Assembly (NCBI GenBank): GCA_963775685.1
Contig: CAVZJV010000014.1
Span: 1,248,001 to 1,312,000, forward strand
DNA from: Candidatus Bathyarchaeota archaeon
Lineage (GTDB): Archaea > Thermoproteota > Bathyarchaeia > Bathyarchaeales > Bathycorpusculaceae
Length of the DNA stretch: 64,000 nucleotides
Reading direction: 5' to 3'
Of this stretch, positions 6,305-25,076 are shown piece after piece. Position 1 is the stretch's first letter. The number at the start of each line of letters is the position of its first letter. The notes under the pieces are model-generated. The model was not told the origin of the DNA. It saw only the letters and a list, made by a program, of their open reading frames with translations, and ran no database searches. The translations under genes and the position numbers were made by a program.

Positions 6305-6370
6305 GGAAGAGAATCAGTTTTGAAGGATAAGAATTTTGCTTAAAAATTAATCTGAAAAATAAGAAGGGGT

Positions 6371-8479: not shown

Positions 8480-9904
8480 GTGATCAATACACAATCGAGC
8501 ATCTGCTTTTTTAACACCTTATCACGCAGAAAAGAAATATTCAAACCGTTGGAACAGGGCAAAGCGAAAGTGTATACTTGTGGTCCCACGGTTTATGATT
8601 TTGCGCATATTGGGAATTTTCGGGCGTTTTTGTTTGAGGACTTGTTTAAACGTTGGTTGGTTCACCGGGGCTTTAAAGTCATACATGTCATGAATCTCAC
8701 AGACATCGATGATAAAACTATCAAGGGCAGCCAAAAACAAGGCATCTCACTAAGCCAATTCACCGATCTCTATGTGAAAGCTTTCTTTGAAGACATTAAA
8801 GCTCTAAATATAGAGCCCGCAGACGTTTACCCCAAAGCTACTGATCACATACCTGAAATGGTCACCCTGATTAAGACCTTGCTTGCTAAGGGCGTCGCTT
8901 ACAAGGGTGAAGACGGCTCGATTTACTTCTCTGTAAGCAAATTCCCAGATTATGGCAAACTATCCCACATCAAAGTCGATGAACTCAAGGTAGGCGCACG
9001 GGTTAGCCAAGACGAATACGCAAAAGAAGAAGCGCAGGATTTTGCATTATGGAAAGCATGGTGCCCTGAAGACGGCAACGTCTTCTGGGAGACAGAATTG
9101 GGTAAAGGACGACCAGGCTGGCATATCGAATGCAGCGCAATGAGCATGAAATACCTCGGTGAAACCTTTGACATCCACTGCGGCGGAGTCGACAACATGT
9201 TTCCCCACCACGAAAACGAAATCGCCCAAAGCGAAGCGGCAACTGGCAAAAAATTTGTGAATTACTGGATGCATAACGAGCACTTGCAGGTGGAGGGCAA
9301 GAAAATGTCCAAAAGACTCGGCAATTTCTATTCACTGCGAGACCTCCTAGCCAAAGGTTACGAACCTATTGTCATTCGATATTTGTTAATGTCTACCCAT
9401 TACCGCCAACAATTTAACTTCACTTTTGAAGGTTTAGAAGCCGCCAAAGGCGCCGTGGATAGGCTAAGGAATTTTGTCAGACGCTTACACGACACGGACG
9501 GCAATGACAGTGAGGGAACAGTAGCTACCCTCACTGCGAAAGCTGAAGCTTGTTTTGGTGGTTCGATGGATGACGACTTAAACATCGCGATTGCACTCGC
9601 ATCCCTTTTTGACTTTGTACGCGAAATCAACAACTTACTCGACGCTAAAATGGTGAGCAAAGCGGAAGCCTCAGATATCAACGGTTTAATGATGAAGTTT
9701 GACGAGGTTTTAGGCGTTGTTGGCAAAGCAGAGGTTGAAGAAGCACTTTCTCTTGACATTGATTTACTATTGCAGAAACGTGAAGCAGCACGCAAAGCCA
9801 AGAAATGGAAAGAAGCCGACTCAATTAGGGCACAGCTTAAAGCTATGGGCATTGTGCTTGAGGATACAGCGCAGGGTATTCGATGGCACAAAGAGAAAGT
9901 CTAA
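8480..9904 (+). CDS. cysS: Cysteine-tRNA ligase
   Basis: YTCGPTVY, HIGN, PGWHIECSAM, KMSKR motifs. Confidence 0.97.
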   Translation: MINTQSSICFFNTLSRRKEIFKPLEQGKAKVYTCGPTVYDFAHIGNFRAFLFEDLFKRWLVHRGFKVIHVMNLTDIDDKTIKGSQKQGISLSQFTDLYVKAFFEDIKALNIEPADVYPKATDHIPEMVTLIKTLLAKGVAYKGEDGSIYFSVSKFPDYGKLSHIKVDELKVGARVSQDEYAKEEAQDFALWKAWCPEDGNVFWETELGKGRPGWHIECSAMSMKYLGETFDIHCGGVDNMFPHHENEIAQSEAATGKKFVNYWMHNEHLQVEGKKMSKRLGNFYSLRDLLAKGYEPIVIRYLLMSTHYRQQFNFTFEGLEAAKGAVDRLRNFVRRLHDTDGNDSEGTVATLTAKAEACFGGSMDDDLNIAIALASLFDFVREINNLLDAKMVSKAEASDINGLMMKFDEVLGVVGKAEVEEALSLDIDLLLQKREAARKAKKWKEADSIRAQLKAMGIVLEDTAQGIRWHKEKV

Positions 9905-10695
9905 GCGATTTTTCCACTGAAAGTCCAGTCTTTTGTTGAGTATTTTTCTTTGTAGAGGATGTTTGCAGTTTCTTTTTCTGCATGTGTTAATTCGCTTGGT
10001 TCGAGCTGAATTTTGAGGATTGCCTTGAAACCCTGGGCAAGAGCATTAGCTATAGTGCTGGGAGAGATTTGGTGCCCTAATTCGTTTTGGATGCTTGTGA
10101 TTTTGTGTTTAGCGATATCAGTTGCTTGAGTGCAGGATGCATTATTGAGCTTGAGGACCGAAAACATTTTGGGTAAATCTACAATTCGCAGTACTGTGCC
10201 ATGTTGAAGCACGACACATCGGGTAATTGTTTGGCTACTTCCCGAGATTTTTTTGCCATTAACCGTCAGGTTCGGGCAGTTTTTGGCGTTTCCACTGCTA
10301 AAATCAGCTGGAACACCCAAAAGCCTTAGTGCATCGGTTATTGCCCCGTAAATCTGCAGGTAAACGCTGGTTATGTCACCTATACCAAAATCTGCGACTT
10401 TGGCGATTACGCTGTAGGTTACTTCTCCCTCAAAATCGTGATAAACGGTGCCGCCTCCACTAATCCGCCTGACAATGTCAATGCCCTGCTTCTTGCAAGA
10501 GTCAAGGTAAACCTCGTTCTCAGAGTTCTGGTTCTTGCCTATGCTGACGGCAGACGGTTGCCAACGATAGAACCGCAACGTATTTGGCACCTGACCAGCT
10601 ATTCTTGCTTTTAAAATTGTTTCGTCGATCGCCATGTTCATGAAGGCATCGTTGGTTTCTAAGGGCAATAACCGCCAAGTATTCATGTCACTCAA
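9901..10695 (-). CDS. Lipoate-protein ligase A family protein
   Basis: NMAIDE, RRISGGGTVYHD, GKKISGS, LQHGT motifs. Confidence 0.92.
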   Translation of the reverse strand: MSDMNTWRLLPLETNDAFMNMAIDETILKARIAGQVPNTLRFYRWQPSAVSIGKNQNSENEVYLDSCKKQGIDIVRRISGGGTVYHDFEGEVTYSVIAKVADFGIGDITSVYLQIYGAITDALRLLGVPADFSSGNAKNCPNLTVNGKKISGSSQTITRCVVLQHGTVLRIVDLPKMFSVLKLNNASCTQATDIAKHKITSIQNELGHQISPSTIANALAQGFKAILKIQLEPSELTHAEKETANILYKEKYSTKDWTFSGKIA

Positions 10696-10829
10696 TCCTT
10701 TTCTTATGGAAAATTGTAGTAGGGCTTAAAACTGTTATGCAATAGAATGCCTTTTGAAGTAAAAGTTGCGACTATTCATGAGGAATAGATAAATGCTTAA
10801 AAACCAAGCATTGCATCTCTAAAGAAGAG

Positions 10830-11720
10830 ATGAAAAAAATGAAGATTATCTCTGGTCCCGCGTCCAAAGCGCTTGCTGAAGCGGTTTCAGCATTATCTGG
10901 TTTCCCAAATGTACCTGTTGTTTCAAAGGTTTTTCCCGATGGAGAATCCTATGTACGTTTGGATGGAAACGTTCAAGGTGAAGACGTGGCAATTGTTCAG
11001 ACGACTTGTCCACCCATGCAGGATGGCAGGCTTTTCCAATTAGCGTTCATGGCTGACGCGGCTAAACGTGGCGGTGCAAAAAAAGTCACTACCGTTGTGC
11101 CTTACTTGGCTTATGCTCGGCAAGACAAAATGTTTCTCTCTGGCGAGGGCATAAGCGTGGAAACCATCGCGCGCATGCTCAAAGCTTCTGGAATCGACCA
11201 GTTTCTAACAATTAACATTCATTCTGAACCCACGTTGGGGAATTTTCCGTTTCCAGCCAAAACCCTAAGCGCCATTCCACTCATTGCGGAATACTTTGTC
11301 GACAAAGGTCACAAAGGGGCATTCGCGCTTTCACCCGACAAAGGCGCTATGTACATCGCCCAGCAAGCCCAAGTAGTTCTTTGTGGCGACGCAGGACACC
11401 TCAACAAAACTCGCGACCGTTACACGGGCCAAACTGCCCAAACCGCCGAGGGTCTAAACGTGAAAGACCAAACCGTCATAATTCTAGATGACATCGTTAG
11501 CACAGGAGGCACAATCGTTGGTGCTGCAAAAATCCTCAGGGAACAAGGAGCTAGACATGTTTTCTGCGGTTGCGTCCATGGTTTGCTAATTGGCAATGCT
11601 GAGAGGCGGATTTTGGATGCGGGTGTGGAGGAGATTGTTGGAACCGACAGCGTTCCCGGAAGCGTGAGTAAGGTTTCGTTGGCACCACTTATCAGTCAAG
11701 AGCTTAAGGCGCAACAGTAG
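10830..11720 (+). CDS. prs: Ribose-phosphate pyrophosphokinase
   Basis: FPDGE, PYLAYARQD, SPDKGA, ILDDIVSTGGT. Confidence 0.96.
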   Translation: MKKMKIISGPASKALAEAVSALSGFPNVPVVSKVFPDGESYVRLDGNVQGEDVAIVQTTCPPMQDGRLFQLAFMADAAKRGGAKKVTTVVPYLAYARQDKMFLSGEGISVETIARMLKASGIDQFLTINIHSEPTLGNFPFPAKTLSAIPLIAEYFVDKGHKGAFALSPDKGAMYIAQQAQVVLCGDAGHLNKTRDRYTGQTAQTAEGLNVKDQTVIILDDIVSTGGTIVGAAKILREQGARHVFCGCVHGLLIGNAERRILDAGVEEIVGTDSVPGSVSKVSLAPLISQELKAQQ

Positions 11721-12793
11721 TGCCTAAACTCTTCTTTTTGCTCTCAGGCGAGAACGAAACACTGCCCAGCGCGGAAGTTAAGGCGATTCTGGAGGCGGAA
11801 GGGTATCGCTTCTCGAATGTTTCAGAGTTTGACCAGATTCTGCGGTTAGAAGCGGAAGTGGGCAGCGTCCAACCTGTACAGGTTCGCTCTGCTTACACTC
11901 GGTTTTGCGCTCTTGAACTTTTTGTGGCAAACGCAAACTTTATTGACATTGCAAAAGCAGCCGCGGAAACAGATTTCAAAGCCGTCCTTAAGCCCGGCGA
12001 AAAGTTTGTTGTGCGGATAAATAGGATAAAAAACTATGCTGACCAAGTAAACTCGATGGTTCTAGAGGGTATGTTGGGTAAGCAAATATTAAACGGCACT
12101 GATGGAACTAAAGTCAGCTTGAAAAACTCAGATAAGACCTTCATAGGAATAATAACCGATGAAAAACTCATTTTAGGCTTAAAGCTAACTGATATAACCA
12201 GCAAAACCTTCTCTGAACAGCGTCCACGCAAAAAACCGTTTTTCCACCCATCTGCAATGCCCTCAAAAATGGCGCGGTGCATGGTAAATTTGGCACATGC
12301 AAAAGCAGAATCGGTGCTACTTGACCCTTTCTGTGGAACAGGCACCTCGCTCATAGAAGCCACCTACATCGGTTGCCGAGCAGTGGGAATAGATGCCCAG
12401 AGACGCATGATTTTGGGCACACAGAAAAACTTGCGTTTCTTCAACATCTCAGCGGAAGGATTAGTGCTTGCAGATTCACGAAAAACCCCTTTCTCTAAAG
12501 TCGATTGTATAATTACTGATCCACCCTATGGTCGCTCATCGAGCACACTTAAATCAACTACTAAGCAGTTGGTAGAAGAAGTTTTAGCATCCTCGCGGGA
12601 GTTGCTTGGGGTAGGGCAACGAATTTGTATAGCCCTTCCGATACAGGTGAACGGATGTGGAAAAACAGAGAGATTAGCTGAAGTACTCAAGTCTCATATT
12701 GCTAACTTAGGATTTAAAACTATTGAGTCACACAAGGTCTATATCCACCGAAGCCTGACAAGAGAAATAATGGTTTATGAAAAAGTCAGTTAA
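11720..12793 (+). CDS. trm11: tRNA (guanine10-N2)-methyltransferase (THUMP + MTase); the residues after ICIA are element-encoded
   Basis: THUMP N-terminus, PFFHPSAM, LDPFCGTG, TDPPYG, HRSLTR; coupled to prs stop. Confidence 0.9.
   Translation: MPKLFFLLSGENETLPSAEVKAILEAEGYRFSNVSEFDQILRLEAEVGSVQPVQVRSAYTRFCALELFVANANFIDIAKAAAETDFKAVLKPGEKFVVRINRIKNYADQVNSMVLEGMLGKQILNGTDGTKVSLKNSDKTFIGIITDEKLILGLKLTDITSKTFSEQRPRKKPFFHPSAMPSKMARCMVNLAHAKAESVLLDPFCGTGTSLIEATYIGCRAVGIDAQRRMILGTQKNLRFFNISAEGLVLADSRKTPFSKVDCIITDPPYGRSSSTLKSTTKQLVEEVLASSRELLGVGQRICIALPIQVNGCGKTERLAEVLKSHIANLGFKTIESHKVYIHRSLTREIMVYEKVS
12623..12633 (+). repeat. attL core ATTTGTATAGC
   Basis: Identical to 21557-21567; both encode ICIA in the trm11 frame. 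Confidence 0.88.
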
Positions 12794-12800
12794 AAACATA

Positions 12801-12875
12801 GTAGCGAGTTTCTTATTGTAGCAATTTTTTAGGATAAACCCATTGTAGCAGAAAGTAGCCCTTATTTTGTGTAGC
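12801..12875 (+). repeat. Cluster of five GTAGC motifs, two as ATTGTAGCA; candidate arm-type or accessory binding sites
   Basis: GTAGC at 12801, 12818, 12845, 12855, 12871. Confidence 0.4.
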
Positions 12876-13157
12876 AGTTTTCTAAGTGAATAATAATATT
12901 GTATGGGTTACTTCTCTCTTTACTTGAAGCTGGAAAGATTCTTAAAGAAAACTTTGTTGTCTTTCTATCAATTATCGAAAACGTTAGTGCAGCACCGCAC
13001 GAATGCAGAAGCGATACCCACTTGTCTTAATTAGCTAACGAAATGGTCTTAATGGTACTTTCAGATTATTACTGTTTGGTAAACCTCTTAGTAGAGAAAC
13101 TTATCTCTTAAGTTGGTTAAAACCCTCAGTTTGAGGCTTAGAATTCATGTGGATAAG

Positions 13158-13781
13158 TTAGAGGTTAATAATCCCAATCTTTGTTTGAATCTGAATTGGG
13201 ATTGTAGCATTTAAGAAAGGAAAACGCTGTTTGTTTTCATCTTTATGCTCTATAATGTTAATCCCAGAAGAGGTAATTTCTGCCCATAACCACAATTTAT
13301 CCATAGTGCTTTCAATTTTTATTAGGTTTTCTTGTTCAAGATATTTTGTATCGAAGTCAACTATATTTTCTGGAACATTCAAGAGTTCAATAACTTGTTC
13401 CCTTTTGATTATGTTATCTTTAGGATTTGTTTCTGCTTTTTTATAGAGTATTGTTAGAATGGAGTGTCTAATTTGATCATGGGAAAGAATGGAATTATCT
13501 TTATCTATTAGTTCTTTTTTTGGTTTTCGATGGTCAAGTATGTCAATTCGGCAAACAATGAAACCAGCACTTAAGAAGGGTATACCTAAAATTAGAAGCC
13601 AAAAGTCGAAGAAAAAACCATAAGATGCTATCAAAGAACTTAGAGAAACCAAAATTAATCCAATTATATATAATGGTCCAATTTCATCTTTTCCAAGCTT
13701 CATATTTAATTTTCTCCTTCTCCTAATGTTACATTCTACGTTATTCAGTTTTAAGTTTTTGCCATTGATTATTTTTGGCAT
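13158..13781 (-). CDS. Cargo protein: two N-terminal TM helices plus winged-helix-like C-terminal domain
   Basis: Hydrophobic segments, then IRHSILTILY...KYLEQENLIK...EITSSG wHTH-like pattern; start uncertain. Confidence 0.6.
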   Translation of the reverse strand: MPKIINGKNLKLNNVECNIRRRRKLNMKLGKDEIGPLYIIGLILVSLSSLIASYGFFFDFWLLILGIPFLSAGFIVCRIDILDHRKPKKELIDKDNSILSHDQIRHSILTILYKKAETNPKDNIIKREQVIELLNVPENIVDFDTKYLEQENLIKIESTMDKLWLWAEITSSGINIIEHKDENKQRFPFLNATIPIQIQTKIGIINL

Positions 13782-14335
13782 TGAATCATGGCTCTCTTGT
13801 TAATGTTACCAACATTGCAAATTGCTCTTAAGACAACTTCAAGAGCATTACAAAAATGAAATTCTATAAACATATAAATTGGTTCATCCTTCTTCCAAGA
13901 TTCATAAATGGCTTTCTTTTTAGAGTTTGCATGTGCCAATCCACCGTAAATAAAAATATCTATAAGCTCTCCTTTAGTTGGAGTAAATCCGTATAAATTC
14001 ATGTTAATTTTAGTATCAAGATAATTGTTTAATCCGTTTCTCTGGTCTAAAAATTCTTTTTTAAGCTCTGACGAAATAGGTAATTTTTCAAAACTTTCGC
14101 TTAATCGGTGAAAAGAACTTTTTTCATTGTCTTGAGTAAAGAAGCGATAGGTTAAAACAAAGGCATCAATTGCATCTTGGTCAGGAAGTATCCTTGTCAT
14201 CTTAACCTCTTCACCCTCATTTAAAGTTACGCTTGCTGAAAGTTTACCTGTTTCTTTCAAGTGTTTTACAAAACGTGTTTTCAGTAGTTTTTCTGCTTTT
14301 TCGTTGAAGAGTTTGAGAGATGAGAGTTCATCCAT
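13769..14335 (-). CDS. Cargo hypothetical protein, possibly HEPN-like
   Basis: 188-aa ORF with IYGGLAHAN motif and helical C-terminus; AT-rich. Confidence 0.55.
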   Translation of the reverse strand: MDELSSLKLFNEKAEKLLKTRFVKHLKETGKLSASVTLNEGEEVKMTRILPDQDAIDAFVLTYRFFTQDNEKSSFHRLSESFEKLPISSELKKEFLDQRNGLNNYLDTKINMNLYGFTPTKGELIDIFIYGGLAHANSKKKAIYESWKKDEPIYMFIEFHFCNALEVVLRAICNVGNINKRAMIQCQK

Positions 14336-14418
14336 GCGTTTACTCTAACATTTAGTATTAAAAGCTTCGGCTTTTAGTTTTTGCTATCAAGAGAGAAACT
14401 TAGATTATTTGACCTAAT

Positions 14419-14856
14419 TCATACTTCTCGTTCTAATCTATCCCCAAAATGGAGTATCGGAACAGCTTTGTAAAATCCAGCTTTCCTATTATCTGGTTCC
14501 AGTGGATATGTACCTCTTAGCTCTTGCCACTTCTCATAATCAGTTAAGTTAGGGTTAAGCTCTATATGCAAACTTAGACGTAATTCTTTGTCTCTAACTG
14601 CTCGCCATTCAGCTAATTCCTCGTCATGCTTCTGTCGAGTCTCGGCTGAGAGGTCGTAATCTTGGTAAAACTTATGGGTACTGACATACTCGTCATACTG
14701 CTCTTTAGTGAAGCCCTTGAACCTGTATCTTATTTGTTTTAAGGTCTTCGCGTCTTGCTTCTCTTGCTCTGAAGCTTCTATTATGATAAAATTAGTTTGT
14801 TCTTGTAAAACTTCCATATTCTTAACTCCTATTGGTCTGGTCTCAAATGGGTACAA
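14419..14856 (-). CDS. Element hypothetical protein (charged)
   Basis: ORF co-oriented with element genes; true start may be the second Met. Confidence 0.6.
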   Translation of the reverse strand: MYPFETRPIGVKNMEVLQEQTNFIIIEASEQEKQDAKTLKQIRYRFKGFTKEQYDEYVSTHKFYQDYDLSAETRQKHDEELAEWRAVRDKELRLSLHIELNPNLTDYEKWQELRGTYPLEPDNRKAGFYKAVPILHFGDRLEREV

Positions 14857-14908
14857 GAATAAGGGAAAGAAGGCATAACCTTACTCTTGTACCGCTTGAG
14901 ATGTGACT

Positions 14909-15199
14909 CTACTTCTTCTTCTTTTGATATTGAGCTATTACGCGCCCAACATCAATACTAACTGCCCGTGTTGCTGCATTGTGAAAAGATGAGGTGGTTG
15001 ACGGTAGAATAGGTGTGAGCTTATCTATTACCGACTGTCTACCCTCTTGTTTGGCTTGCTCAGCTAACTTAGCGGTTTCTGTTCGATTAATAGCTAAGTT
15101 TCTTTCAAGTTTACCCTTTGCCTGTAGCAACTCTGCTTCTCGTCTTTTGAGAGCTTGAATGTCTCTTCGTACTTCTTCTACAGTAGGTACAGTAGGCAT
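14909..15199 (-). CDS. Element coiled-coil protein
   Basis: Heptad-like VRRDIQALKRREAELLQAKGKLE; start overlaps upstream stop. Confidence 0.65.
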   Translation of the reverse strand: MPTVPTVEEVRRDIQALKRREAELLQAKGKLERNLAINRTETAKLAEQAKQEGRQSVIDKLTPILPSTTSSFHNAATRAVSIDVGRVIAQYQKKKK

Positions 15200-15453
15200 T
15201 AGACGATGTCTCCTATCTGTAGCTCGTCTGCTTTTCTGTAAACATGCTCCCGTAAATTACATGCTGCCTTGTACTCTGGATTTACGCTGCGATAGTATTT
15301 CGCGGTCTTGCCTGTTTCCTTGAGATATCTTAGCTGTGCTTTTACCTTGACCTTACTATAAGCGATAGGTCTGCACCTGTCGCAGTACTTCTGATTTCCC
15401 TTGAGTGCAGTCCCACAGTTGCAAACATGTCTCAGCGTCTCTTGAAAGGTCAT
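15199..15453 (-). CDS. Element zinc-finger protein
   Basis: CNCG...KYCDRC; ATGA overlap with upstream gene. Confidence 0.7.
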   Translation of the reverse strand: MTFQETLRHVCNCGTALKGNQKYCDRCRPIAYSKVKVKAQLRYLKETGKTAKYYRSVNPEYKAACNLREHVYRKADELQIGDIV

Positions 15454-16145
15454 TGCTTCTTTCCCCCGAGGAAGGAACCTAACCCAAAACCCTTCTTCTT
15501 TGGTGTTTCTTTTTTAGCTACCTGTTTAGTTTTCAAAACTGCATCATATTCGGCAGTAGTAGGTTGGCGAAGTCTTCCATCGTTAGCATCTTTAACGAAC
15601 CCATACTTCTCCCAATAACCAGCGTCTTGTGCAGCTAATCCTAACCCCACATCAATTATGGTGCACGGAATGGGCTTAGCTCGATTAACTATAGGGTCTG
15701 GAGAAACTTTGCACTTTATCGTAAAGACATGAGATACGATTTCACCGTACATGTCTGAATTCTGTGTCTTATGGGTAGCTACTGCTGTCTCTCCATCATC
15801 TGTAAAGACGACATCGCTTGTCATGTATAAGGTACCATCGTATAGGTCCCAGCGGTTCTTTTGGGGGACATATTTTAAGACGTATCTTCCGTCAGAAAAA
15901 TAAAGATACTTGTCCATTACTATTACGCCCTCATCATAGACATTAACTAAAGCTCTGTACCTCTCTAATAATTTAGAAAGCTTAACTTTGTCTTCACGGT
16001 GCATTTCACTATTAACGTAAGGTCCATCTTTAAGTGAGTACGCTGTTGGGTTGTTGACTTTACTGTTTAAGTATTCTATCTCTTTTTGAAGAGCTAATCT
16101 CTTAGCTTTGATTTCTTCGTTAGTCAGAGTTGGTTTGTCACTCAT
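15450..16145 (-). CDS. Element hypothetical protein (231 aa)
   Basis: Long ORF with purine-rich RBS-like sequence upstream; N-terminal coiled coil, basic C-terminus; no family recognised. Confidence 0.7.
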   Translation of the reverse strand: MSDKPTLTNEEIKAKRLALQKEIEYLNSKVNNPTAYSLKDGPYVNSEMHREDKVKLSKLLERYRALVNVYDEGVIVMDKYLYFSDGRYVLKYVPQKNRWDLYDGTLYMTSDVVFTDDGETAVATHKTQNSDMYGEIVSHVFTIKCKVSPDPIVNRAKPIPCTIIDVGLGLAAQDAGYWEKYGFVKDANDGRLRQPTTAEYDAVLKTKQVAKKETPKKKGFGLGSFLGGKKQ

Positions 16146-16251
16146 TGGTTGTTTCCCCCTCTGCTAAGTGCTCCTGATTTAACAGGGATTATTTTCCTAC
16201 TTTGAATTATTGATTTGCTGGTTCCGCATTTCATATATTTTTGCCTCTTTT

Positions 16252-16509
16252 TTACACTGTATACTTAACTACAATTTTCTCGGTGAAAGACTCCTGCAGT
16301 CCCTCATCGCTGTTTAAAGACCCTTGAATGCTCTTGTAGTTACTAAGAGCAATCTTAGTCTGAAAGGACATCTCTTTATTGCAGAGTTTCAAACTCTCCA
16401 ACAAAACAGCTATCTGTTCCTGTAAGGCGTTCTCTCTAAGATGCATATAATAGAGCTTAACGTCAATGTCTCGGAAGACTAATTTCCTGAGTGCTTGAGA
16501 GAACTTCAA
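16252..16509 (-). CDS. Element hypothetical protein
   Basis: TTG start overlaps the stop of the upstream zinc-finger ORF. Confidence 0.55.
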   Translation of the reverse strand: MKFSQALRKLVFRDIDVKLYYMHLRENALQEQIAVLLESLKLCNKEMSFQTKIALSNYKSIQGSLNSDEGLQESFTEKIVVKYTV

Positions 16510-16667
16510 TAAAATCTCCCCTGTTTATTCCGCTTCCTCGCATTTCCAGCGTTAGTTACTTTTCTGCAACTTTCTGTGCAGAATACTTTGTCTATAGTGT
16601 AGGTCTGGAAATTCCCTTTGCATCCAAGACATACTTTGTTTAGGATTGTGTTTGATATGTTTTCCAT
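16506..16667 (-). CDS. Small zinc-finger protein (53 aa, below ORF-track cutoff)
   Basis: Hand translation MENISNTILNKVCLGCKGNFQTYTIDKVFCTESCRK...; CxxC...FCxxxC; overlaps both neighbours. Confidence 0.7.
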   Translation of the reverse strand: MENISNTILNKVCLGCKGNFQTYTIDKVFCTESCRKVTNAGNARKRNKQGRFY

Positions 16668-17131
16668 CACTCGAAAGTCCTCCGATAATCTAAATACTTC
16701 TTATACTCATGAATGCGAATGAAGCACTGTGGACATGTGGGTTCTAATGAGCTTCTCATATAATCGCAAAGTTCGCACTCAACCTTTGGGTCGCCTACCT
16801 CTAAAAATCCTTGAATCTCGCCAACAGTTATGCCATGAACAAGCGGTAAATCTTCACCTAAATATAGATGAATCTCCATAAAGTCAACGTCTACACCTAA
16901 CACTTTGTAAAACTTCTTCCACGATTGATAGGCTTCCTTGACTTGTGGAATGGTCTTACCGTAAAACCAGAGATTGATAAGACTCTCTAAGTTCTCTTCT
17001 GTCTTTACAACTTGACTAACGTTAGCCTTTGTAGCTGCTTCTATCTTGGACTGTAACTCTCGCTCTTTCTTTTGCTGTTGATAGTGTCTCTGACGCGCGG
17101 CACTGTCTGGGTACACTCTCTTTCTGCCCAT
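16667..17131 (-). CDS. Element putative DNA-binding protein with C-terminal zinc finger
   Basis: Basic MGRKRVYPDSAARQRHY N-terminus; CELC...CPQC. Confidence 0.7.
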   Translation of the reverse strand: MGRKRVYPDSAARQRHYQQQKKERELQSKIEAATKANVSQVVKTEENLESLINLWFYGKTIPQVKEAYQSWKKFYKVLGVDVDFMEIHLYLGEDLPLVHGITVGEIQGFLEVGDPKVECELCDYMRSSLEPTCPQCFIRIHEYKKYLDYRRTFE

Positions 17132-17221
17132 TCAAACTGCATCTCCGATAATGTCTGATTTCTGTTTTCGAGCGTCAATTCTAATGTGATTATTGCCAAC
17201 CAAGAATAATTCCCTCTTTCC

Positions 17222-17374
17222 CTACTTACTCTTAGAATCTTTGAGTAATTTTAAAGCTCTAAGCACTACACCCTGAAGGGGTTCTGAAGAGTATTCTCTT
17301 AGCTCTTTAGCTAACTGAACAGTACTCTTATCAATCGCTAAACACGTAGTCTTAGATTCATTATTCTCTTTCAT
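17222..17374 (-). CDS. Small RHH-like regulator (50 aa, below ORF-track cutoff)
   Basis: Hand translation MKENNESKTTCLAIDKSTVQLAKELREYSSEPLQGVVLRALKLLKDSKSK; TTTATA upstream on minus strand (~17433-17438). Confidence 0.55.
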   Translation of the reverse strand: MKENNESKTTCLAIDKSTVQLAKELREYSSEPLQGVVLRALKLLKDSKSK

Positions 17375-17756
17375 TATTAATCACTAATATATCTCTAATT
17401 AATCTCTGATAATAGATAACCGTTAAAGTGCCTATAAAGGATTATGGTCTTTTCTTAATCACTATAGAAACTTAGCTACTTTCTTCTCCCTCTCTGACTA
17501 TATGGTCGTGTTTTGAGCGACAGAATCAACCTTTATCCAACCTTCTTTAGCTAAATAACCTTCTTAATGGTCATGTTCGCATTGCGAATTGCTAACCAAT
17601 TAGACTTGACCTTTTTCTTAGATTCTTTAGCTAATTGCTGCCTTCTCTGTGCCAATTTCATATCGCAACTTTGATCTAATAACTTTGTGCCAATACCAGA
17701 GCTAAAGCCTTGATTCCCTGAATAGAACTCTCACTAAGGTGATTCTCAATGAGAAT

Positions 17757-18120
17757 TACTGTGTTCACTGACAGTATTTTTATTAAGAAAGAAGCCAAAA
17801 TCATACTTCTTTGTCTAATTGCTCCCTTTGTCGGTCTTGGCACTCTGAGTGCATTTTTCATTGATAAACCGACCTGTTTCAAGCTCTGTTTGCAATTTAA
17901 TGGGCTTGCCTACCCGATTTATCTGATAAATTTTTTCATTGATAGATAGAAGCTCAGAATAAGGGTATTCGTTTAATTGCTCCCCTCATTGGTCGTTGTA
18001 CTCTGAGTACATTTTTTATTGATAGAGATAGGCTCAGATTAAGCGTATTCATTCAATTACTCTCTTTATTGGTCACGGTGGTGTGACCACATTCTTTCTT
18101 GATAGAAAGAGGCTCAAAGG
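17757..18120. repeat. Non-coding tandem array (77-80 bp period) of hairpin-containing units
   Basis: 5-3-5 palindromes at 17840, 17918, 17998, 18078, each followed 8 nt later by TTGATA; shared AATTRCTCYCT...GGTC linker in three units; degenerate unit ending 17775. Confidence 0.85.
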
Positions 18121-18169
18121 ATTACCGAGAAAACTTAGCTAAAAACAGATTCAGAACCATATTTCTTTG

Positions 18170-18337
18170 TTATTGACTGAAAGCTCTTCGACTGCCCCTT
18201 ACACGGTAAGATTCGCGTTGCTCTTCCTCACGCTTCAAGGCTTTCAAGTGTCGTATTCTCTCTGCCTCGTCTTTATTATTGTCAACAATGACAACGTGAG
18301 AGCAGTCTGATTTGCCTTTAAATTTGTTGTTAATCAT
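18170..18337 (-). CDS. Small charged element protein (55 aa)
   Basis: Hand translation MINNKFKGKSDCSHVVIVDNNKDEAERIRHLKALKREEEQRE... Confidence 0.45.
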   Translation of the reverse strand: MINNKFKGKSDCSHVVIVDNNKDEAERIRHLKALKREEEQRESYRVRGSRRAFSQ

Positions 18338-18350
18338 TCAATTATCCATC

Positions 18351-19106
18351 CTAAACAGTCCCTTTTCCAGTGGGACTTAACTCGTTAAACTTGAGCAAAA
18401 GGACAATTCTTCTAAGAATATTCAATCTTTTTCTCTCTCCTATATGTTGCCATAAGGCGTTACCTGCTCTATCAGTCACTACTATTCTTTCTATATAATG
18501 AGAGTCTTTCTTGCTACAGGTGATTGGTGGGTTTTTTCCATCACTGATTGTCATTTCTTTCCCTATCTTGATAATTTCCAATATCTTCAGTCTATTGATG
18601 GACGCTTCCACTTCTATGGCAGTTAAGTTAGTTTGATATCTCTTACTGAAGGGTTTAAGCAGTTTGAAGAGTGCGCTATCAAATAAGGCTCGAACAGTTG
18701 TGTGTAGGTTATCCTCTTCTGCATGAATGTAAGTTGGAATTAGCTGGATACGTTCTTTCTTAAGTTTCTCCTTCTCTTCTTTAGACATGTTTGGAAAACT
18801 AATGCTGAGAACCCACTCGTCTTTATGTTCTGGGTCTTTACGATGGAAGTATTCTATCTTAGAATCCATAATGTCCTTATTCATGTGGGTTCGTTCTTTA
18901 GGGTTAGTAACTTCTAAAAGAATCCTTTTTCCTTTAACTGGAATAACTATGTCAACTGCGTTATGATGGTCGAATGAATATTCAGAGTGGTCAAAACTGT
19001 TATGGTCGCACTTTAAGCCTAACTTCTGCTCTATGAAGTGGACATGTGCCATCTCTGCTGGAATACCGCTCAGATAGTTTATGTTGAAGTTATTCATTTT
19101 ACTCAT
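18351..19106 (-). CDS. PD-(D/E)XK nuclease-like protein
   Basis: GIPAE helix, AVDIVI and LLEVTN in restriction-endonuclease-fold spacing; canonical Lys not evident. Confidence 0.55.
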   Translation of the reverse strand: MSKMNNFNINYLSGIPAEMAHVHFIEQKLGLKCDHNSFDHSEYSFDHHNAVDIVIPVKGKRILLEVTNPKERTHMNKDIMDSKIEYFHRKDPEHKDEWVLSISFPNMSKEEKEKLKKERIQLIPTYIHAEEDNLHTTVRALFDSALFKLLKPFSKRYQTNLTAIEVEASINRLKILEIIKIGKEMTISDGKNPPITCSKKDSHYIERIVVTDRAGNALWQHIGERKRLNILRRIVLLLKFNELSPTGKGTV

Positions 19107-19263
19107 TCCTTGTCGAATGCGCTTGATTAGAGGTTAAGGGTGACAAGCCCCTCTCCTCATTAAAATCAAGCTGGGTTGTTAACAATTACAAACCGAAGAA
19201 ACGACTTAAAAGGAATTATGGTCAAAACTAAAATGGTCTACACTTGTGTTCTGCCAATAGCCA

Positions 19264-19334
19264 CTGTTTCAAGCTCCGTTTTCAATTTAAGAGCCTTATC
19301 GGTAGCTGTGACCGCGTCACACCTATGTTTGATA
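19264..19334. repeat. Dispersed copy of the array unit
   Basis: 19264-19290 matches 17874-17900 at 25/27; GTGAC-CGC-GTCAC and TTGATA follow in the same register. Confidence 0.8.
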
Positions 19335-19532
19335 CTTTTGGTTCTATTGATAGTTGTTCTATCTAACCCTACTTTCTTAATTATCTCGGTTCGAGTGTTC
19401 CAAGAGAATTGAGAGAGGATGTCTGTGAAATGTTGTTTAATGGTTTTTTAAAAAGCAAAAATCCAGCCCTTATCTAACCTTCTTTTCTAAATTACTATTT
19501 ATTATGGGGCTATTGCCATTGGCAATTAAATC

Positions 19533-19976
19533 TCAACCCGAAACAGTTGGGTGAGGAATGCTAAACTTGAAGCCTAAGAATTTCTGTTTCCTTATTCGCT
19601 TTTCCTCATAGGACTCGGCGTTTGGGTTATGTCTTCTATACCGATCTCCATGTCTTAATTTCTCTTCTTTTGAATGGGTTTCTCGATACTGCTTATTCCA
19701 TTCATGGTAGTTCTCTTTATTCAGTTCAAAGTACTCTTTGCTTCCTACACTATGATTAGCACAATACCTCATTTGTCTCTTGCTTAAGAAGCGCCCACAA
19801 ACTTCACATCTACGCTGAGACCAAGAAATCAAATCACTACTACTTGACTTATACACTCGATAGCCTGTACTAAAACAGCCATCGCCAATACTATGAGTTG
19901 TTGTATTCATCTCACTCATCCTCACAATAGTAATATCGGAATAATGCTTAAAAGGATTTTTGGGTATTATATTCAA
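19533..19976 (-). CDS. Element zinc-finger protein with basic helical tail
   Basis: RRCEVCGRFLSKRQMRYCANH; start uncertain. Confidence 0.65.
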   Translation of the reverse strand: MNIIPKNPFKHYSDITIVRMSEMNTTTHSIGDGCFSTGYRVYKSSSSDLISWSQRRCEVCGRFLSKRQMRYCANHSVGSKEYFELNKENYHEWNKQYRETHSKEEKLRHGDRYRRHNPNAESYEEKRIRKQKFLGFKFSIPHPTVSG

Positions 19977-20253
19977 TTTGGAATAATGACAAGACTAAAA
20001 AATTTTTGGGAGCATTCTGTTTCCCATTACATGATCGAAAAGGTGGGGCGAGGTAGTTTGTATGCTATTATTAAGTAACATCTACCCAGTATTCCATTTC
20101 CCATTACGATTTTGAAATATCTTTCTTGAGAATAATTACAGATTGTTGTAGCCTTGTACTATTGTTATACAGTTGGGCTTATTCTCCATTCTCATATAGC
20201 CAATACCCATAGTAGAGGCTTTTCTTAGTAGTAGCATCAATAGCAGTAGTGAT

Positions 20254-21501
20254 CTAACGCCTCACCTTACCCTTAGGTTTAATCTCTGGTTCTTCTTCAT
20301 GAGCGTTAAGCTCTTCCTCAATCGCTCGCTCTAACCCTTCCCTGTTGATTTTGATGTTTCCATTATTGCTAAGTTTCCTAAGTAGAATGTCTACAGTGAG
20401 CTTCTCAGCAACAGCGTTATTCTGCCATGTGGTAACTTGAGCTGTTAGTTCCTTAACCTTTAATTCTAATTCGTTAAGCTTAGTCTCGTCTACCACTCGC
20501 ACACCTTCACTCAAGAACTCAAGGTCTGGGAGAGCTTGCTTATACTTAGATCGAAGCTGTTCAATTAATGGTCTGGAATAGGGAGCTTCTTCACCGCTAA
20601 CCTTTCTTCCCTTAATCTTCTTAATCCAGTTGATAGGACATCCAGCATTCTCTAAAGCTGTTTGAACTATACGTCTACCATCATGAAAAGTGAAGTTTGC
20701 ATTAGCTCTTTGCTCTAAAATGGTTGCTTTCTTTGCTATCATGCGTATAGTTAATGGTTCGCTTATGTTGCGTTTGACTGAGAGAAAAACATAGTCTTCG
20801 TTAGTCCACTTGTGACCAAAGTTCTTTTCCATCCATTCTCTATATTCAATAACTACTCTTTTTGCTTCGTTAGTTATGAAGGTCTCTTGCCTTACGCCTC
20901 TATACTTTCCCTTGCCATGACCCTTCACTAAATCAGAGGGTAAAGAGATGTGTGGACATTCTTGAGTTTCCCAACCCTCTTCAAAGTGATAGAATCTTAG
21001 CTTTGAGAGGGACTCTAAAGCTATTGCTGAAGTTGCACCTATCATAACGAGTGCTTGGTCTCTGGGGTTTCTGCATGCTTTGAATACTGCTAACCGAGTT
21101 TCTTTAGAGGGTACAGTGTGGCTTTCATTCTGTATGTATGGCATGGACCGACCAGCTTGCGCCTGAAGTTGTCGGTAATTTGTTCTAAAGAATCCTCTGA
21201 GACATTGAGCTATGTGCCACTTTCTTTTTTCTGGAAAGATAACTTTGGCATTCGCTAAACTGTCTAAGAGCTTCTCTGCCTCTAAGCTATTGTAATCTTT
21301 CTTTAGGTCTAACAACTGGTCAGGATTCAACCCAGACCAATTACAGAAATGATAAAGAGAGATGGCTGCGCTGCCCTGTCTACTGTGAAGAGTATTAAGA
21401 TAATTCATTACGCATTGATAGTTTTTAGCCCAACCATCTAATACTGTTAGCTCAGTGAAACCATACTTTAAATTCTTCTTTTTCGCTTCTACTATACCCA
21501 T
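20254..21501 (-). CDS. Tyrosine recombinase/integrase with atypical catalytic motifs
   Basis: N-terminal SAM-like core-binding region, RDQAL, VKGHGKG, FHDGRR (HxxR), APYS tyrosine, C-terminal coiled coil; adjacent to attR. Confidence 0.88.
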   Translation of the reverse strand: MGIVEAKKKNLKYGFTELTVLDGWAKNYQCVMNYLNTLHSRQGSAAISLYHFCNWSGLNPDQLLDLKKDYNSLEAEKLLDSLANAKVIFPEKRKWHIAQCLRGFFRTNYRQLQAQAGRSMPYIQNESHTVPSKETRLAVFKACRNPRDQALVMIGATSAIALESLSKLRFYHFEEGWETQECPHISLPSDLVKGHGKGKYRGVRQETFITNEAKRVVIEYREWMEKNFGHKWTNEDYVFLSVKRNISEPLTIRMIAKKATILEQRANANFTFHDGRRIVQTALENAGCPINWIKKIKGRKVSGEEAPYSRPLIEQLRSKYKQALPDLEFLSEGVRVVDETKLNELELKVKELTAQVTTWQNNAVAEKLTVDILLRKLSNNGNIKINREGLERAIEEELNAHEEEPEIKPKGKVRR

Positions 21502-21556
21502 GTGTCTCTCACTCTCAAGCGTTACCTATTATAGTTTCACCCTTATTAATTCACCT

Positions 21557-21567
21557 ATTTGTATAGC
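21557..21567 (+). repeat. attR core ATTTGTATAGC
   Basis: Direct repeat of 12623-12633. Confidence 0.88.
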
Positions 21568-21697
21568 TTCCCCCAAAACATTGAATATATCGCGTTTAGG
21601 CACTGACTTGGGCTATCGGCATGTTGAATCGCACTTTGCCTATATTCATCAGTCTTTGACGCGGGAGATTGCAGTGTTCGAAAAGGTGAATGTATGA
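21557..21697 (+). pseudogene. trm11: Displaced original 3' end of trm11
   Basis: ICIASPKTL...LGYRHVESHFAYIHQSLTREIAVFEKVNV*, 18/27 identical to the current Trm11 tail; stop overlaps rnz start (ATGA). Confidence 0.88.
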
Positions 21698-22614
21698 GTC
21701 TTCGTGTGGTGTTTTTGGGGACAAGTGGCAGCGTACCAACGCTAAAAAGAAGTCTACCCTCCGTCGTTGTGCAATGTCCGCGCGACCAATGGATGTTTGA
21801 CTGCGGCGAAAACGTACAACGGCAAATGATGCAAGCGAAAGTCAGTTTTCACCGTAAAATGAAAGTGTTCATTACTCATCTGCATGGCGATCACGTTTTG
21901 GGTTTGCCCGGACTATTGCAGACAATGGCATTGATGGGTCGCACCGAGCCAGTTCAGATTTATGGTCCAGTTGGGCTGAAGGATTTTCTTGTTTGTACCA
22001 AAGAAACACTCAACTTTGGCTTAACCTTCTCGGTTGAGATAAGCGAAATCCCTGCAGAAGGCATCGTTTGCAACGAAGAAGAATACAGAGTTATATCAAC
22101 TAAATCTAACCACGCTGTACAAAGCTATGCCTTTGCTTTTGTGGAAAAGCCGCGTCCAGGCAAGTTCTATCCAAAAAAAGCGTTGGCGCTTGGAGTTGCG
22201 GCGGGTGAGCTGTGGTCTAAGCTGCAAAGCGGCAAAGAAATTACTTTGGCGGATGGTAAGGTGATTAAACCAAGCGATGTTATGGGTCCTCTGCGGACTG
22301 GACGCAAAATCATCTACACAGGCGACACCAAACCCTTTGAGGCGTTCGCAAAATTCGCGCAGGGAGCAGATTTGGTGATTCATGATTGCACGTTTGACGA
22401 TTCTCTCACTGAGAAGGCAAATGTGGATGGACATTCAACGCCAACTCAAGCAGCTGAGCAAGCGAGGGCGGCTGGAGCAAAACAGTTGGTTCTGTCCCAC
22501 ATCAGCGCTCGGTACACAAACGCAGGGTTGCTTTTGGACCAAGCAAAAAAAGTCTTCCCCAAAAGCATACTTGCCGAGGATTTTATGGAGCTGGAGCTTC
22601 CCTTAAGCGAGTAG
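21694..22614 (+). CDS. rnz: Ribonuclease Z
   Basis: FLGTSGS, DCGE, THLHGDH, GP exosite, YTGDT, HST, HISARY. Confidence 0.96.
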   Translation: MSLRVVFLGTSGSVPTLKRSLPSVVVQCPRDQWMFDCGENVQRQMMQAKVSFHRKMKVFITHLHGDHVLGLPGLLQTMALMGRTEPVQIYGPVGLKDFLVCTKETLNFGLTFSVEISEIPAEGIVCNEEEYRVISTKSNHAVQSYAFAFVEKPRPGKFYPKKALALGVAAGELWSKLQSGKEITLADGKVIKPSDVMGPLRTGRKIIYTGDTKPFEAFAKFAQGADLVIHDCTFDDSLTEKANVDGHSTPTQAAEQARAAGAKQLVLSHISARYTNAGLLLDQAKKVFPKSILAEDFMELELPLSE

Positions 22615-23385
22615 CTGCTTTAATTTCTTGATGCTTTGAAGCACCTCATGCATCGATTCGACAACGACGATTTTGTCGTAGCCGATTTTTTCAAGTGTTT
22701 CAGCAAACCAGTTATAGTCGATGTTGCCGTCCTCAACTCCGAAGTGTTGGTCGTCTGAGCCATCGTTGTTGCTGGCGTGGATGTGGACTATTTTGTCAGC
22801 AAGCAAACTAAAAAAAGGCTGGATTTGACCTTCCAAGTTTGCGTGTCCAAGATCCATCGTTATGCCAATAGGCAAGTTGGTTTCTTTGTACATCTTTTGG
22901 AATTCTTCAGGCGAATTCATCAAAAACCAATATTTCGCAGGCAGATTCTCTAGAGCAATGTTAATGCCATATTCCTCCGAAACAGCATACAATTCTTGAA
23001 TACTTTTGCACATTTGCTTGAAATCGGCGCCCGGATAAAATTGCCCGATGCCCGTACGCTGTCCAGGATGGAAGACCCAAAGTTTAGCGTCCATGGCAGC
23101 TGCGTTTTGGAGGGATTGTTTGAGTCGTTTAAGCGACGCGCTTAGCATAGGTTTGACAGGCGAAGCAATGTTGATGTCCGCGAAAGGCGCATGCAAGGAA
23201 TACTCTAGGCTGTAGGTTTTTGCGGCTTCCCTGAGCGCAGCAATACGTGGTTTGTTTAAATCATACGTGCCGTCATCCAAAATCTCAATGTACTTAGTGC
23301 CCATTTTTCCCAAGCGTTTGACCATACTGTTAAAGGGTTCACCCAAGCAATAGAGCATTGAAACGCCAACTTTAGCTTTAGACAT
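22603..23385 (-). CDS. Sugar phosphate isomerase/epimerase (TIM barrel, AP endonuclease 2 family)
   Basis: HAPFADIN, FHPG, LENL, DLGHA, HIHASNNDG..DQH. Confidence 0.85.
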   Translation of the reverse strand: MSKAKVGVSMLYCLGEPFNSMVKRLGKMGTKYIEILDDGTYDLNKPRIAALREAAKTYSLEYSLHAPFADINIASPVKPMLSASLKRLKQSLQNAAAMDAKLWVFHPGQRTGIGQFYPGADFKQMCKSIQELYAVSEEYGINIALENLPAKYWFLMNSPEEFQKMYKETNLPIGITMDLGHANLEGQIQPFFSLLADKIVHIHASNNDGSDDQHFGVEDGNIDYNWFAETLEKIGYDKIVVVESMHEVLQSIKKLKQLLA

Positions 23386-23533
23386 GCCATTTCCCCTTTT
23401 ACATTGGAATGTTCTGGTTAAAAACCATACTAACCTAAATAAGTTAACCCCAAAAAAATTCAAACTGCCCGAAAGAGAAGCCAAGGTCTGTTATTTTATT
23501 TTACTCAGGAAATAGTTGCATTCCTCAAGGATT

Positions 23534-24017
23534 CTAAAAGTTTGCCACTCGGGTAGTTCTATGCTGAATTTGACGAATTCCAAGTGCAAGTTCAGTGAAT
23601 TCTTTTATAGTTGTGCAGCGAAAATCCCTCGTTGGCCTTCCAAAGCGTAAGCCGCTGCACATGATGTCCGCGTAGACATAAAGTCGAATGCTATGGTAGT
23701 CATATGCTGCTATCTTGGGTTCACCATATTTTGGTTCGGAAATCACTTTGAAGGGCCAGATTTTGCATGCTTCAGGCTTCATGCTCTGTAGGCTACAATA
23801 GTAGGTGTTTGCTTTGTTGCAGAGGAAATCGCATGAACCATCGTTTGTCCGTTTTTATGTAGAAGCGCTCTAAGTCGGACACGGTGGTTTTAACGCCGAA
23901 AGACCTGGAAATGTTTAGCCACTCAGGAAAACCCAGTACGACGCTGTATAATTTGCAACAGTAACCACAGGCTTTGCAGCGCCAATCCGCAAGGTTTCGC
24001 CATGGAACAAACTGCAT
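23534..24017 (-). pseudogene. YkgJ-family cysteine-cluster protein, split by a frameshift
   Basis: CKACGYCC in the first ORF and KPEACKIWP in the second; removing one A in the A-run near 23853 restores DGSCDFLC. Confidence 0.75.
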
Positions 24018-24090
24018 TTTTAGCTAAAACTCTCCAAGTGAATAAAAATGAAGAAGATTAAATCTTTTGTTCCAACAAACAAAGAAAAAA

Positions 24091-24567
24091 CTATAGTTTG
24101 TTGTAGAGGTAAATCGTATGTGAAGGATAGCCTAACTTGGGGTTTTCGCAGAAATTCTCAACTTTCGTTGGTTGCCAACCAATAATCTCATAGTCATGTG
24201 AAACCACGCGTGCTCCTTTCTTAAGATCGCTCTCCAACTTTGGTTTGATTTTCTCGTTTGCACTCGTCGTCAAGTACAAGTAGACCACGTCTGCCGAAGT
24301 TAGATTTACTTTGAACATGTCATCATTCATTATTGTAACTCTGTCATCTAACCCATGCTCATGAATAGAACTCATAGCTTTCTTAGCTAAATCTTCACGC
24401 ATCTCGATGCCAACTCCTCGGGCGCCAAAAGTCTTTGCCGCCATAATCACGGTTCTTCCATCTCCTGAACCCATATCGAAAAGGACTTCACCTGCCTTCA
24501 AATCAGCAAGCCTCAGCATATATTCTACCACAATTGTTGGGCTTGGAACAAAAGGAGCAATAAACAT
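24091..24567 (-). CDS. SAM-dependent protein methyltransferase (archaeal lysine MTase/FAM173-like)
   Basis: APFVPSP, DMGSGDGR, VVYLYL, RVVSHDY. Confidence 0.85.
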   Translation of the reverse strand: MFIAPFVPSPTIVVEYMLRLADLKAGEVLFDMGSGDGRTVIMAAKTFGARGVGIEMREDLAKKAMSSIHEHGLDDRVTIMNDDMFKVNLTSADVVYLYLTTSANEKIKPKLESDLKKGARVVSHDYEIIGWQPTKVENFCENPKLGYPSHTIYLYNKL

Positions 24568-24594
24568 CTTTCAGGTTCTCCTACAAATCCCTAA

Positions 24595-24928: not shown

Positions 24929-25076
24929 ATTCTCCTAAGAGTACAACAAGCAGATAAGCCAAAATAAGAAGCTCTTCGCTTAAAAAGTTGCTGTATACTG
25001 CCTGAGAGGTTGCTGAGTTTACGAAAAGCTAATAACTTGTTCTTACGCAAAAACAGTTAACCCGCCTGAACAGGAA

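Follow-up and report, generated by a model that had tools for sequence, protein, structure and literature searches.

When a conserved gene is found with two alternative 3' ends, one continuous with its body and the other stranded in front of the next gene downstream, the question arises as to which end is the gene's own and where the other one came from. Such a case is presented by trm11, which encodes a predicted tRNA methyltransferase, in a 64,000-nucleotide stretch of DNA from a soil archaeon, a Candidatus Bathyarchaeota archaeon (assembly GCA_963775685.1, contig CAVZJV010000014.1, positions 1,248,001 to 1,312,000 of the forward strand). The whole of this stretch is referred to here as the window, and all positions not otherwise assigned are numbered within it. 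The answer that emerges from the comparisons described below is that an integrative element carrying a substitute tail has very probably entered trm11, leaving the native end of the gene orphaned before rnz, the gene for tRNase Z.

The starting point is an 11-bp sequence, ATTTGTATAGC, which a repeat search finds exactly twice in the window, at 12623..12633 and 21557..21567, in both cases on the + strand. These two copies are the cores of the attachment sites on the left (attL) and on the right (attR), and a core, ATTTGTATNGC, is common to attL, attR and the empty site attB across the genus. The chance expectation for this particular sequence is 0.05, with one of 100 shuffles giving two copies, but any 11-mer may be expected to repeat in 64 kb in about 490 chance pairs (64000^2/2/4^11), such that the repeat by itself is no proof and it is the placement of the copies which decides. 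In this regard, both encode I-C-I-A in the reading frame of the Trm11 tail. Downstream of the left core trm11 continues through 52 codons (12634..12793, + strand) to a stop at 12791-12793, giving a fused gene of 357 codons at 11720-12793. Downstream of the right core lie 42 codons and a stop (21568..21697, + strand; 46 codons counting I-C-I-A), in a frame that is open and in which the conserved positions are unchanged; the stop, at 21695-21697, overlaps the ATG of rnz at 21694 (ATGA). The core-to-core spacing is 8934 bp, and the G+C content, 0.43-0.51 in the flanks, drops to 0.30-0.41 in the stretch that the repeats enclose. The repeat, the tail lengths, the spacing and the overlap of stop and start had all been put forward in a preliminary description of the window, and every figure checks out. 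The locus thus has the features of a site-specific integrative element, namely identical cores at its ends, an integrase at one end and a matching empty site in relatives, and also those of a gene-end replacement, namely a core within a coding region, a homologous 3' end supplied in frame from the element and a native end orphaned at the far junction.

Which of the two ends is native can be judged from relatives in the same genus. Of 20 loci compared within the genus, 12 carry a trm11 some 348 codons long, each followed by an rnz that begins no more than 10 nt from the end of trm11; in the other eight the gene has about 357 codons and no rnz is found in the 1.5-kb flank, except for one at 337 nt. 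The tails are of two types. The native or N-type, of 45-47 residues, has the consensus ICIASPKTLNI..LGYRHVESHFAYVH..LTREIAVFEKV, and the element-borne or E-type, of 53-57 residues with one of 66, has the consensus ICIALPI.VNG.G....M......FV..LGYKTIESH.VYIH..LTREIMVYEK. In the window the left tail, longer than the native one by about 10 residues, is of the E-type and the right tail is of the N-type. Since the unoccupied relatives end trm11 with the N-type (ICIASPKTLNI...AVFEKV) before rnz, the right copy is the native end, as had been proposed; the left-type tail stands directly before rnz in none of the 12. Moreover, the orphan N tail of the window is identical at 42 of 46 residues to the functioning tail of an unoccupied genome (G002, locus L005), in which the predicted empty site, CAACGA ATTTGTATAGC TTCCCC, is indeed present. 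The two tails of the window are 38-45% identical to one another by BLAST, rising to 62% over residues 328-356, and 18 of their conserved final 28 positions are identical.

The proposal that the left tail belongs to the element is borne out by its distribution. A search of 120 genomes of the genus gave a match in 114, of which 36, about a third, were found to have the long-tailed Trm11 when counted by hand from match lengths. The long-form sites of 31 of these 36 genomes, amounting to 32 loci, were studied in detail, and the long type proves to be restricted to loci at which trm11 and rnz lie apart (32 of 32) and to form a clade of its own. When 301 genomes were sampled across the class, 160 gave a match; the long-form matches among them all come from this genus and the full-length matches from outside the genus are all short, and the solved enzyme of Thermococcus kodakarensis is without the extra 11 residues. 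Since the long form is confined to the genus in that sample, and given the short T. kodakarensis enzyme, the E-type tail has no known native home. The same data bear on a trivial explanation, in which a foreign contig has been joined into trm11 by faulty assembly or binning. The source genome is a metagenome-assembled genome (MAG), for which such errors have to be considered; the locus, however, is interior to a contig of about 2.47 Mb and an identical arrangement is met with in 31 genomes, which come from different records, and this leaves this explanation scarcely credible.

The presumed agent of integration lies just inside the right junction. A gene for a tyrosine integrase of 415 amino acids (20254..21501, - strand), which is intact in the integrated state, starts 55 nt from the attR core. 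It has a match to PF00589 just under the curated cut-off, a match to the phrog_1 integrase family (E 2e-5) and a catalytic pattern in which R (NPRDQAL), H-D-G-R (HDGRR) and Y (EEAPYS) are invariant across 15 aligned integrases of 46-100% identity; going by a published pattern (PMC8371274), the R...HxxR...Y residues are probably the catalytic ones. The integrase has six homologues in the genus, at 72-86% identity, and four more from further genome and metagenome scans, and all 10 of these close homologues face head-on a core, an N-type tail and rnz across a spacer of about 55 nt. An alignment of 11 attR regions also reveals a conserved AT-rich box, TTAATAAGGGTG on the integrase strand (21538..21549, - strand), at a distance of 7 nt from the core and about 40 nt upstream of the ATG of the integrase, which from its position is probably either the TATA box of the integrase or a core-type binding site.

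Two other candidates for parts of the integration system were considered and rejected. A tRNA gene as the true target is absent from positions 8000-26000 of the window and from the surroundings of five more distant integrases, 46-57% identical to that of the window (L036-L040, in G080:C21, G059:C4, G095:C6, G104:C5 and G023:C10). Among the neighbours of the latter are a DeoC aldolase gene, an HD-domain gene (twice) and a GPR1/FUN34 gene, and the wider integrase family seems to use non-tRNA targets generally. Secondly, five GTAGC words, with ATTGTAGCA occurring twice, stand right after the tail stop (12800..12880, + strand). Five such words within 85 nt compare with a window background of 0.77 per kb, and they resemble the core TTGTATAGC; their role as conserved arm sites was rejected, however, as relatives sharing this integrase have no such words behind their tails, which also places them outside the cassette.

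Taken together, these observations are very probably to be explained by one mechanism. A small element (12634-21556, flanked by the 11-bp core) would have integrated through a tyrosine-recombinase crossover within the I-C-I-A codons, that is at a point in the middle of a beta-strand of the Trm11 methyltransferase domain, and would have brought, next to the core of its own site, attP, an in-frame substitute for the final 42 codons of the gene. By virtue of this substitute end trm11 stays open, ending in 52 element-encoded codons, while the native 42 codons are left stranded as an orphan before rnz. The integrase, the 55-nt spacer, the core and the tail make up one cassette common to elements with unrelated cargo, and the cargo of the window's element is found elsewhere in the company of other integrases.

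A different origin for the two tails can be envisaged, in which the 3' end of the host gene was duplicated locally and an unrelated island later landed between the copies, such that the tail itself was never mobile. The tails are indeed homologous and the 11-bp junction is common to both. Their divergence, however, is of the wrong kind. Between E and N tails the proportion of nonsynonymous differences (pN) is 0.36 and that of synonymous differences (pS) is 0.92, which is saturated, whereas the adjoining 100 upstream codons of the same genome pairs are no more diverged than usual (pN 0.13, pS 0.74); from these values the jump in divergence is located exactly at the core. In a tree of the tails, in which the few columns render the inner forks unreliable, the split between E and N has support of 100/99 on a branch of 1.32 changes per column, and the E tails form one clade across species with unrelated inserts. 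The E tail closest to that of the window (73%) is found in G104, which is also the genome with the most similar integrase (86%), and copies of core plus E tail occur both in tandem arrays and away from trm11. A local duplication is, on these grounds, most improbable, and the entry of an element with its own tail is the preferred explanation.

What the exchange means for the enzyme depends on what the gene encodes. The host part of trm11 (11720..12622, + strand; residues 1-301) comprises the THUMP domain and most of the methyltransferase domain, including a DPPY motif. The combination of THUMP and methyltransferase is evident from Pfam matches to PF02926 (THUMP) and PF01170 (UPF0020) and from ITDPPYG in the translation. 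The best sequence matches in the PDB are to Trm11 (5E71 at 2e-28, 6ZXW/6ZXV at 4e-25), with Trm14 at only 7e-8, and the Trm11 structures of Archaeoglobus fulgidus and T. kodakarensis take ranks 1-5 in a Foldseek search with an AlphaFold2 (AF2) model. The NCBIfam model TIGR01177 is matched from end to end (6-353 on 3-330 of 330), though its cut-off is not reached (233.3 versus 316.55 bits), and it is accordingly the matches to PDB sequences and folds on which the name Trm11 is based. On this footing the interrupted gene is the archaeal Trm11, a predicted tRNA m2G10/m2,2G10 methyltransferase. The PDB alignment to the archaeal enzyme (aTrm11, 5E71) spans the tail, with an 11-residue gap in 5E71. 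In the AF2 model the crossover falls within the strand 296-310 of the methyltransferase domain, and the tail forms the remainder of that strand, a short helix (319-330) in the longer stretch and the last two strands (332-340 and 348-355); the predicted local distance difference test score (pLDDT), taken by blocks, lies between 63 and 92 over the tail.

These features bear on whether the insertion has simply inactivated trm11, the fused frame being open by chance or through recency and the element's tail being non-functional. E tails do evolve faster than N tails, and in one genome (G051, 82% complete) an isolated E tail is found with no trm11 body at E 1e-20. Set against this, the fused tail is of the E-type and open at all 32 occupied loci examined, even in old remnants in which the native tail has decayed. 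Taking medians over pairs with unsaturated dS, the ratio of nonsynonymous to synonymous change (dN/dS) is 0.18 for 29 fused E tails (pN 0.27, pS 0.71), 0.11 for 12 working N tails (pN 0.15, pS 0.70) and 0.07-0.08 for the 100 host codons upstream (pN about 0.13, pS about 0.73). The E tails are thus under purifying selection, as had been surmised beforehand, with a pairwise dN/dS of about 0.18 and saturated synonymous sites. Moreover, a comparison of 41 full proteins shows eight residues beyond I-C-I-A (G331, H338, H343, L346, T347, R348, E349 and V352) to be invariant irrespective of the tail type, and the tail is modelled as the last strands of the Trm11 fold. Inactivation is accordingly very unlikely, and the chimeric Trm11 created by the element is, to judge from its sequence, probably active.

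Whether the exchange is reversible is a separate matter. In the relatives, the state of the orphaned native tail goes together with that of the integrase. At the 11 loci with the family integrase the orphan N tail is whole in every case (one is cut by a contig end), as established for seven by translation and for four by full-length ungapped tblastn matches. In the 26 examined inserts without an intact family integrase, the gene being missing or fragmented, the N tail is whole in nine, broken by a stop, frameshift or truncation in eight, and vestigial or gone in nine (Fisher p = 2e-4 for the association, in a set of non-independent kin). The contrast between 11 of 11 and nine of 26 indicates that many lineages have fixed the foreign tail; in other words, most occupied relatives have lost the integrase and have a decaying native tail, which has made their swap permanent.

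The element of the window could itself be such a frozen relic, having integrated as described and then lost the ability to excise, in which case no switching of isoforms would take place and the E tail would simply be the end of Trm11 in this lineage. This is a real possibility, if a doubtful one. Fixation is the common fate, as the 17 decayed native tails among the 26 integrase-deficient relatives attest, no excisionase is recognised among the open reading frames (ORFs) of the element in scans with Pfam, PHROGs and NCBIfam, and no free form was found in IMG/VR or in the metagenome scan. On the other side, the integrase of the window is full length with all invariant residues present, the two cores are identical at 11 of 11 positions, and the orphan tail is open and closely matches working tails, as is the case at all the loci which keep the integrase. 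Given that the integrase is intact, that the cores are perfect and that the native tail shows no decay, it is plausible, with the balance just short of even, that this particular copy can still excise, and the toggle between two Trm11 isoforms envisaged in the preliminary description may then operate here.

Several observations nevertheless count against the explanation offered above. The integrase scores 26.3 bits against PF00589 (E 7.5e-6), just below the curated cut-off of 27.1, and has no sequence match in the PDB, nor any in NCBIfam. No copy in the attP configuration, or otherwise free, was found in IMG/VR or in the metagenome scan: the integrase has a single partial match of 30% in IMG/VR, a degenerate attP pattern has no matches there, and the four metagenome matches to the integrase are all in the attR configuration, adjoining a native tail and rnz. 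Nonsynonymous change in the E tails is about twice that in the N tails, which implies a looser constraint, and the chimeric enzyme could be the less fit of the two. The AF2 model is of moderate quality, with a mean pLDDT of 74 and a predicted template modelling score of 0.54. Finally, all the comparison data come from MAGs, related species are non-independent samples, and several of the occupied loci, those of two clusters of shared inserts designated A and B, evidently descend from a single old insertion.

The inserts at the 32 occupied loci are diverse, the distance from trm11 to rnz ranging from 0.33 to about 31 kb. At least three clusters (A, B and C) are shared between loci and many other inserts are unique, which suggests several old events and many unique insertions. 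Among their cargo are a polyprenyl synthase with a histidine kinase, surface proteins of the PQQ-propeller type and an entire urease operon. The last of these is found in a 12.9-kb trm11 insert (L054 in G134:C8, 1203-13990) with the alpha subunit and UreD/E/F/G, to which the island adds one transporter each for urea and ammonium as well as an aquaporin-like gene; the family integrase is absent from it and the native tail is frameshifted. The overall picture is that of a hotspot in long use, where the foreign tail often turns into the permanent end of the gene.

At some of these sites elements have accumulated. Tandem arrays occur in five genomes, with extra E tails between the elements, such that two to three units of core plus E tail lie between trm11 and rnz (L046 in G086, L052 in G081, L057/L058 in G088, L063 in G108 and L048 in G042:C2). 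In the middle tail of G108 a scrambled NEIWSSGPHG replaces NGLGEVDHMA, as might be expected if two frameshifts had compensated each other in a copy that is not expressed. Copies of core plus E tail are also found far from trm11 and rnz, at L028 (G002:C4), L029 (G012:C13), L086 (G071:C12), L087 (G126:C69), L088 (G051:C2) and L089 (G096:C4). Four of these six are open, host-like GGCAAGA/GGCAAACA words stand upstream and there is no recognisable integrase nearby; a 424-residue ORF facing the core and E tail of L087 was considered as a hidden integrase and rejected for lack of any similarity.

The cargo of the window's element, by comparison, is obscure. It consists of 13 ORFs reading towards attL (13158..19976, - strand), and these, with a fourteenth ORF at 17676-17882, match no convincing family in Pfam, PHROGs or NCBIfam. 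One ORF of 251 amino acids has six homologues among 5.8 billion proteins and no relative in IMG/VR. No homologue of the cargo occurs in any other trm11 insert examined; the elements of relatives with the same integrase, of 25-31 kb, carry type I restriction-modification, HicA, thermosome, CDC48, TBP, TFIIB, Alba, PolB, primase and ligase genes. The cargo from 14419 to 19976 is, however, collinear with two elements located elsewhere, L084 (G109:C6, about 6291-13322) and L085 (G055:C3, about 9780-15723). The integrase of the former is a distant tyrosine type of 371 amino acids with 23% identity, sited beside purA, that of the latter is of the SSV type (PF16795), and both of these sister elements are without a trm11 tail. 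That the same cargo travels with different integrases, the tail being absent, indicates that one family of small elements has swapped its integration modules.

The limits of the exchanged part can also be placed. A non-coding region at the left end (12818..13098) is 76-77% identical to the ends of the sisters in blastn comparisons (L084 6291-6473, L085 15561-15723), and the G109 sister element ceases to be homologous beyond 12818 on the left and beyond 19548 on the right. From these limits, the window-specific part is one block running from integrase to tail, which comprises integrase, spacer, core and tail, measures at least 1.5 kb and at most about 2.2 kb, and is contiguous once the element is circular. 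In other words, the integration module, including the tail, behaves as a swappable cassette. It may be added that imperfect direct repeats of TTTAGGATAAA(C) flank the G109:C6 sister element, at 6302-6320 and 15155-15173 of L084, 8853 bp apart, and that TTTAGGATAAA also occurs in the left non-coding region of the window at 12828-12839; TTTAGGATAAA(C) may be the att core of the sister element, vestigial in the window.

How much of this is new can be gauged from known systems. The icd gene of Escherichia coli is the site of the element e14 in strain K-12 and, likewise, of phage 21. For e14, the available text of PMC13626634, citing Hill et al. 1989, describes how icd runs into the prophage with a C-terminal fragment, icdC, at the other junction, and how excision rejoins icd with its native-end fragment. 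The trm11 case is alike in that a site-specific element lies within a protein gene, in its 3' part, with the native end displaced to the far junction, and by this analogy the mechanism would be that of e14 in icd, a kind already known. It differs in having an archaeal host, a tRNA methyltransferase as the target, an 11-bp core, a length difference of 10 residues and fixation in many species; furthermore, the icd ends differ by two residues according to that text (PMC13626634), while those of trm11 differ at well over half of the aligned positions.

The preliminary description had placed 3'-end replacement of protein genes in bacteria, which stands for e14, but such replacement has also been published for archaea. 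Of 68 thaumarchaeal elements, 14 are located at the 3' end of a protein gene, and att sites may be no longer than 8-13 bp (Krupovic et al. 2019, PMC6563490, as far as its available text goes); in one of them, NitEve-E2, the att of which has 13 bp, it is element sequence that restores the reading frame, and the paper also describes tandem arrays at a single site. The archaeal host, the tyrosine integrases, the very short att sites and the tandem arrays are all shared with the present case. The thaumarchaeal example replaces 8 nt, however, against 42 codons here, trm11 is not among the targets given in that text, and its section on protein-gene targets describes no homologous substitute tail, selection or fixation (PMC6563490). 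In the supplement text of the same paper Trm11 figures only as cargo of the casposon NitNF5-C2, and a ParB-Trm11 fusion gene on an Asgard element appears in PMC11529989; such Trm11-like cargo on archaeal mobile elements is a possible source of the element-type tail.

As for the integrase, the available part of a review (PMC8371274) describes Class II archaeal integrases (classical, pNOB8-type, following the lambda paradigm) as those whose gene is whole after integration and adjoins one att site, and the gene in the window is likewise intact and next to one att site. The pNOB8 type has the pattern R...YxxR...Y in that text (PMC8371274), as opposed to the R...HxxR...Y of the window's integrase. 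The archaeal protein-gene targets given there are HMG-CoA reductase, a cation efflux gene and AsnC, none of which was tested (PMC8371274), and trm11 is absent from that part of the review's target list (PMC8371274). No paper naming trm11 as an attachment site was found in the literature searched. The novelty lies, then, in the gene that is targeted and in the host group, in how large and how divergent the replaced piece is, in the behaviour of the cassette and in the extent to which the foreign tail has been fixed.

The locus is a clear instance from the archaea, replicated many times in nature, of a mobile element that rewrites the end of a conserved housekeeping enzyme, as opposed to merely interrupting or sparing its target gene. 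The successive states can be read across species, from an intact element with a whole native tail, through loss of the integrase and decay of the tail, to a permanent foreign C-terminus, and the series shows a route by which a piece of a core protein gains a mobile-element origin. In Bathyarchaeia, whose mobile elements are little known, the trm11 site is also a hotspot for adaptive islands, such as the urease operon with its transporters and the restriction-modification systems. Moreover, the 11-bp core, defined arms and compact integrase make up a recombination system that lends itself to testing, in a lineage for which genetic tools are lacking, and the two tail types amount to a natural experiment on the C-terminal part of Trm11. 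A stronger claim would be that the cassette is a self-contained, portable module for gene-end replacement, passing from one mobile backbone to another, unrelated one, and that its tail, longer by 10 residues and with an extra helix beside the last strands, is more than a neutral patch and alters Trm11 in its m2G versus m2,2G product, its choice of tRNA, its partner or its stability. This is unlikely, but were it true, carriage of the element would re-tune the tRNA modification of the host, and about one third of the genus would be using an enzyme end derived from a mobile element.

There remain the genes on either side of the insertion. The row prs-trm11-rnz is headed by prs, for ribose-phosphate pyrophosphokinase (10830..11720, + strand; Pfam PF13793 at 5.7e-31, and PF14572), the end of which overlaps the start of trm11 and which is kept as a neighbour in all examined relatives. 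At the other end rnz (21694..22614, + strand; Pfam PF12706 and PF13691) is separated from the operon by the insert. In four relatives the rnz lying 3' of an old insert is broken into two to three frames (G010:C6:33879-34795, G112:C10:43899-44817, G130:C2:1256822-1257740 and G081:C14:23674-24593), with no second copy found with this query; the split genes reflect either true decay once the operon had been severed or spurious indels, the MAGs concerned being 73-92% complete.

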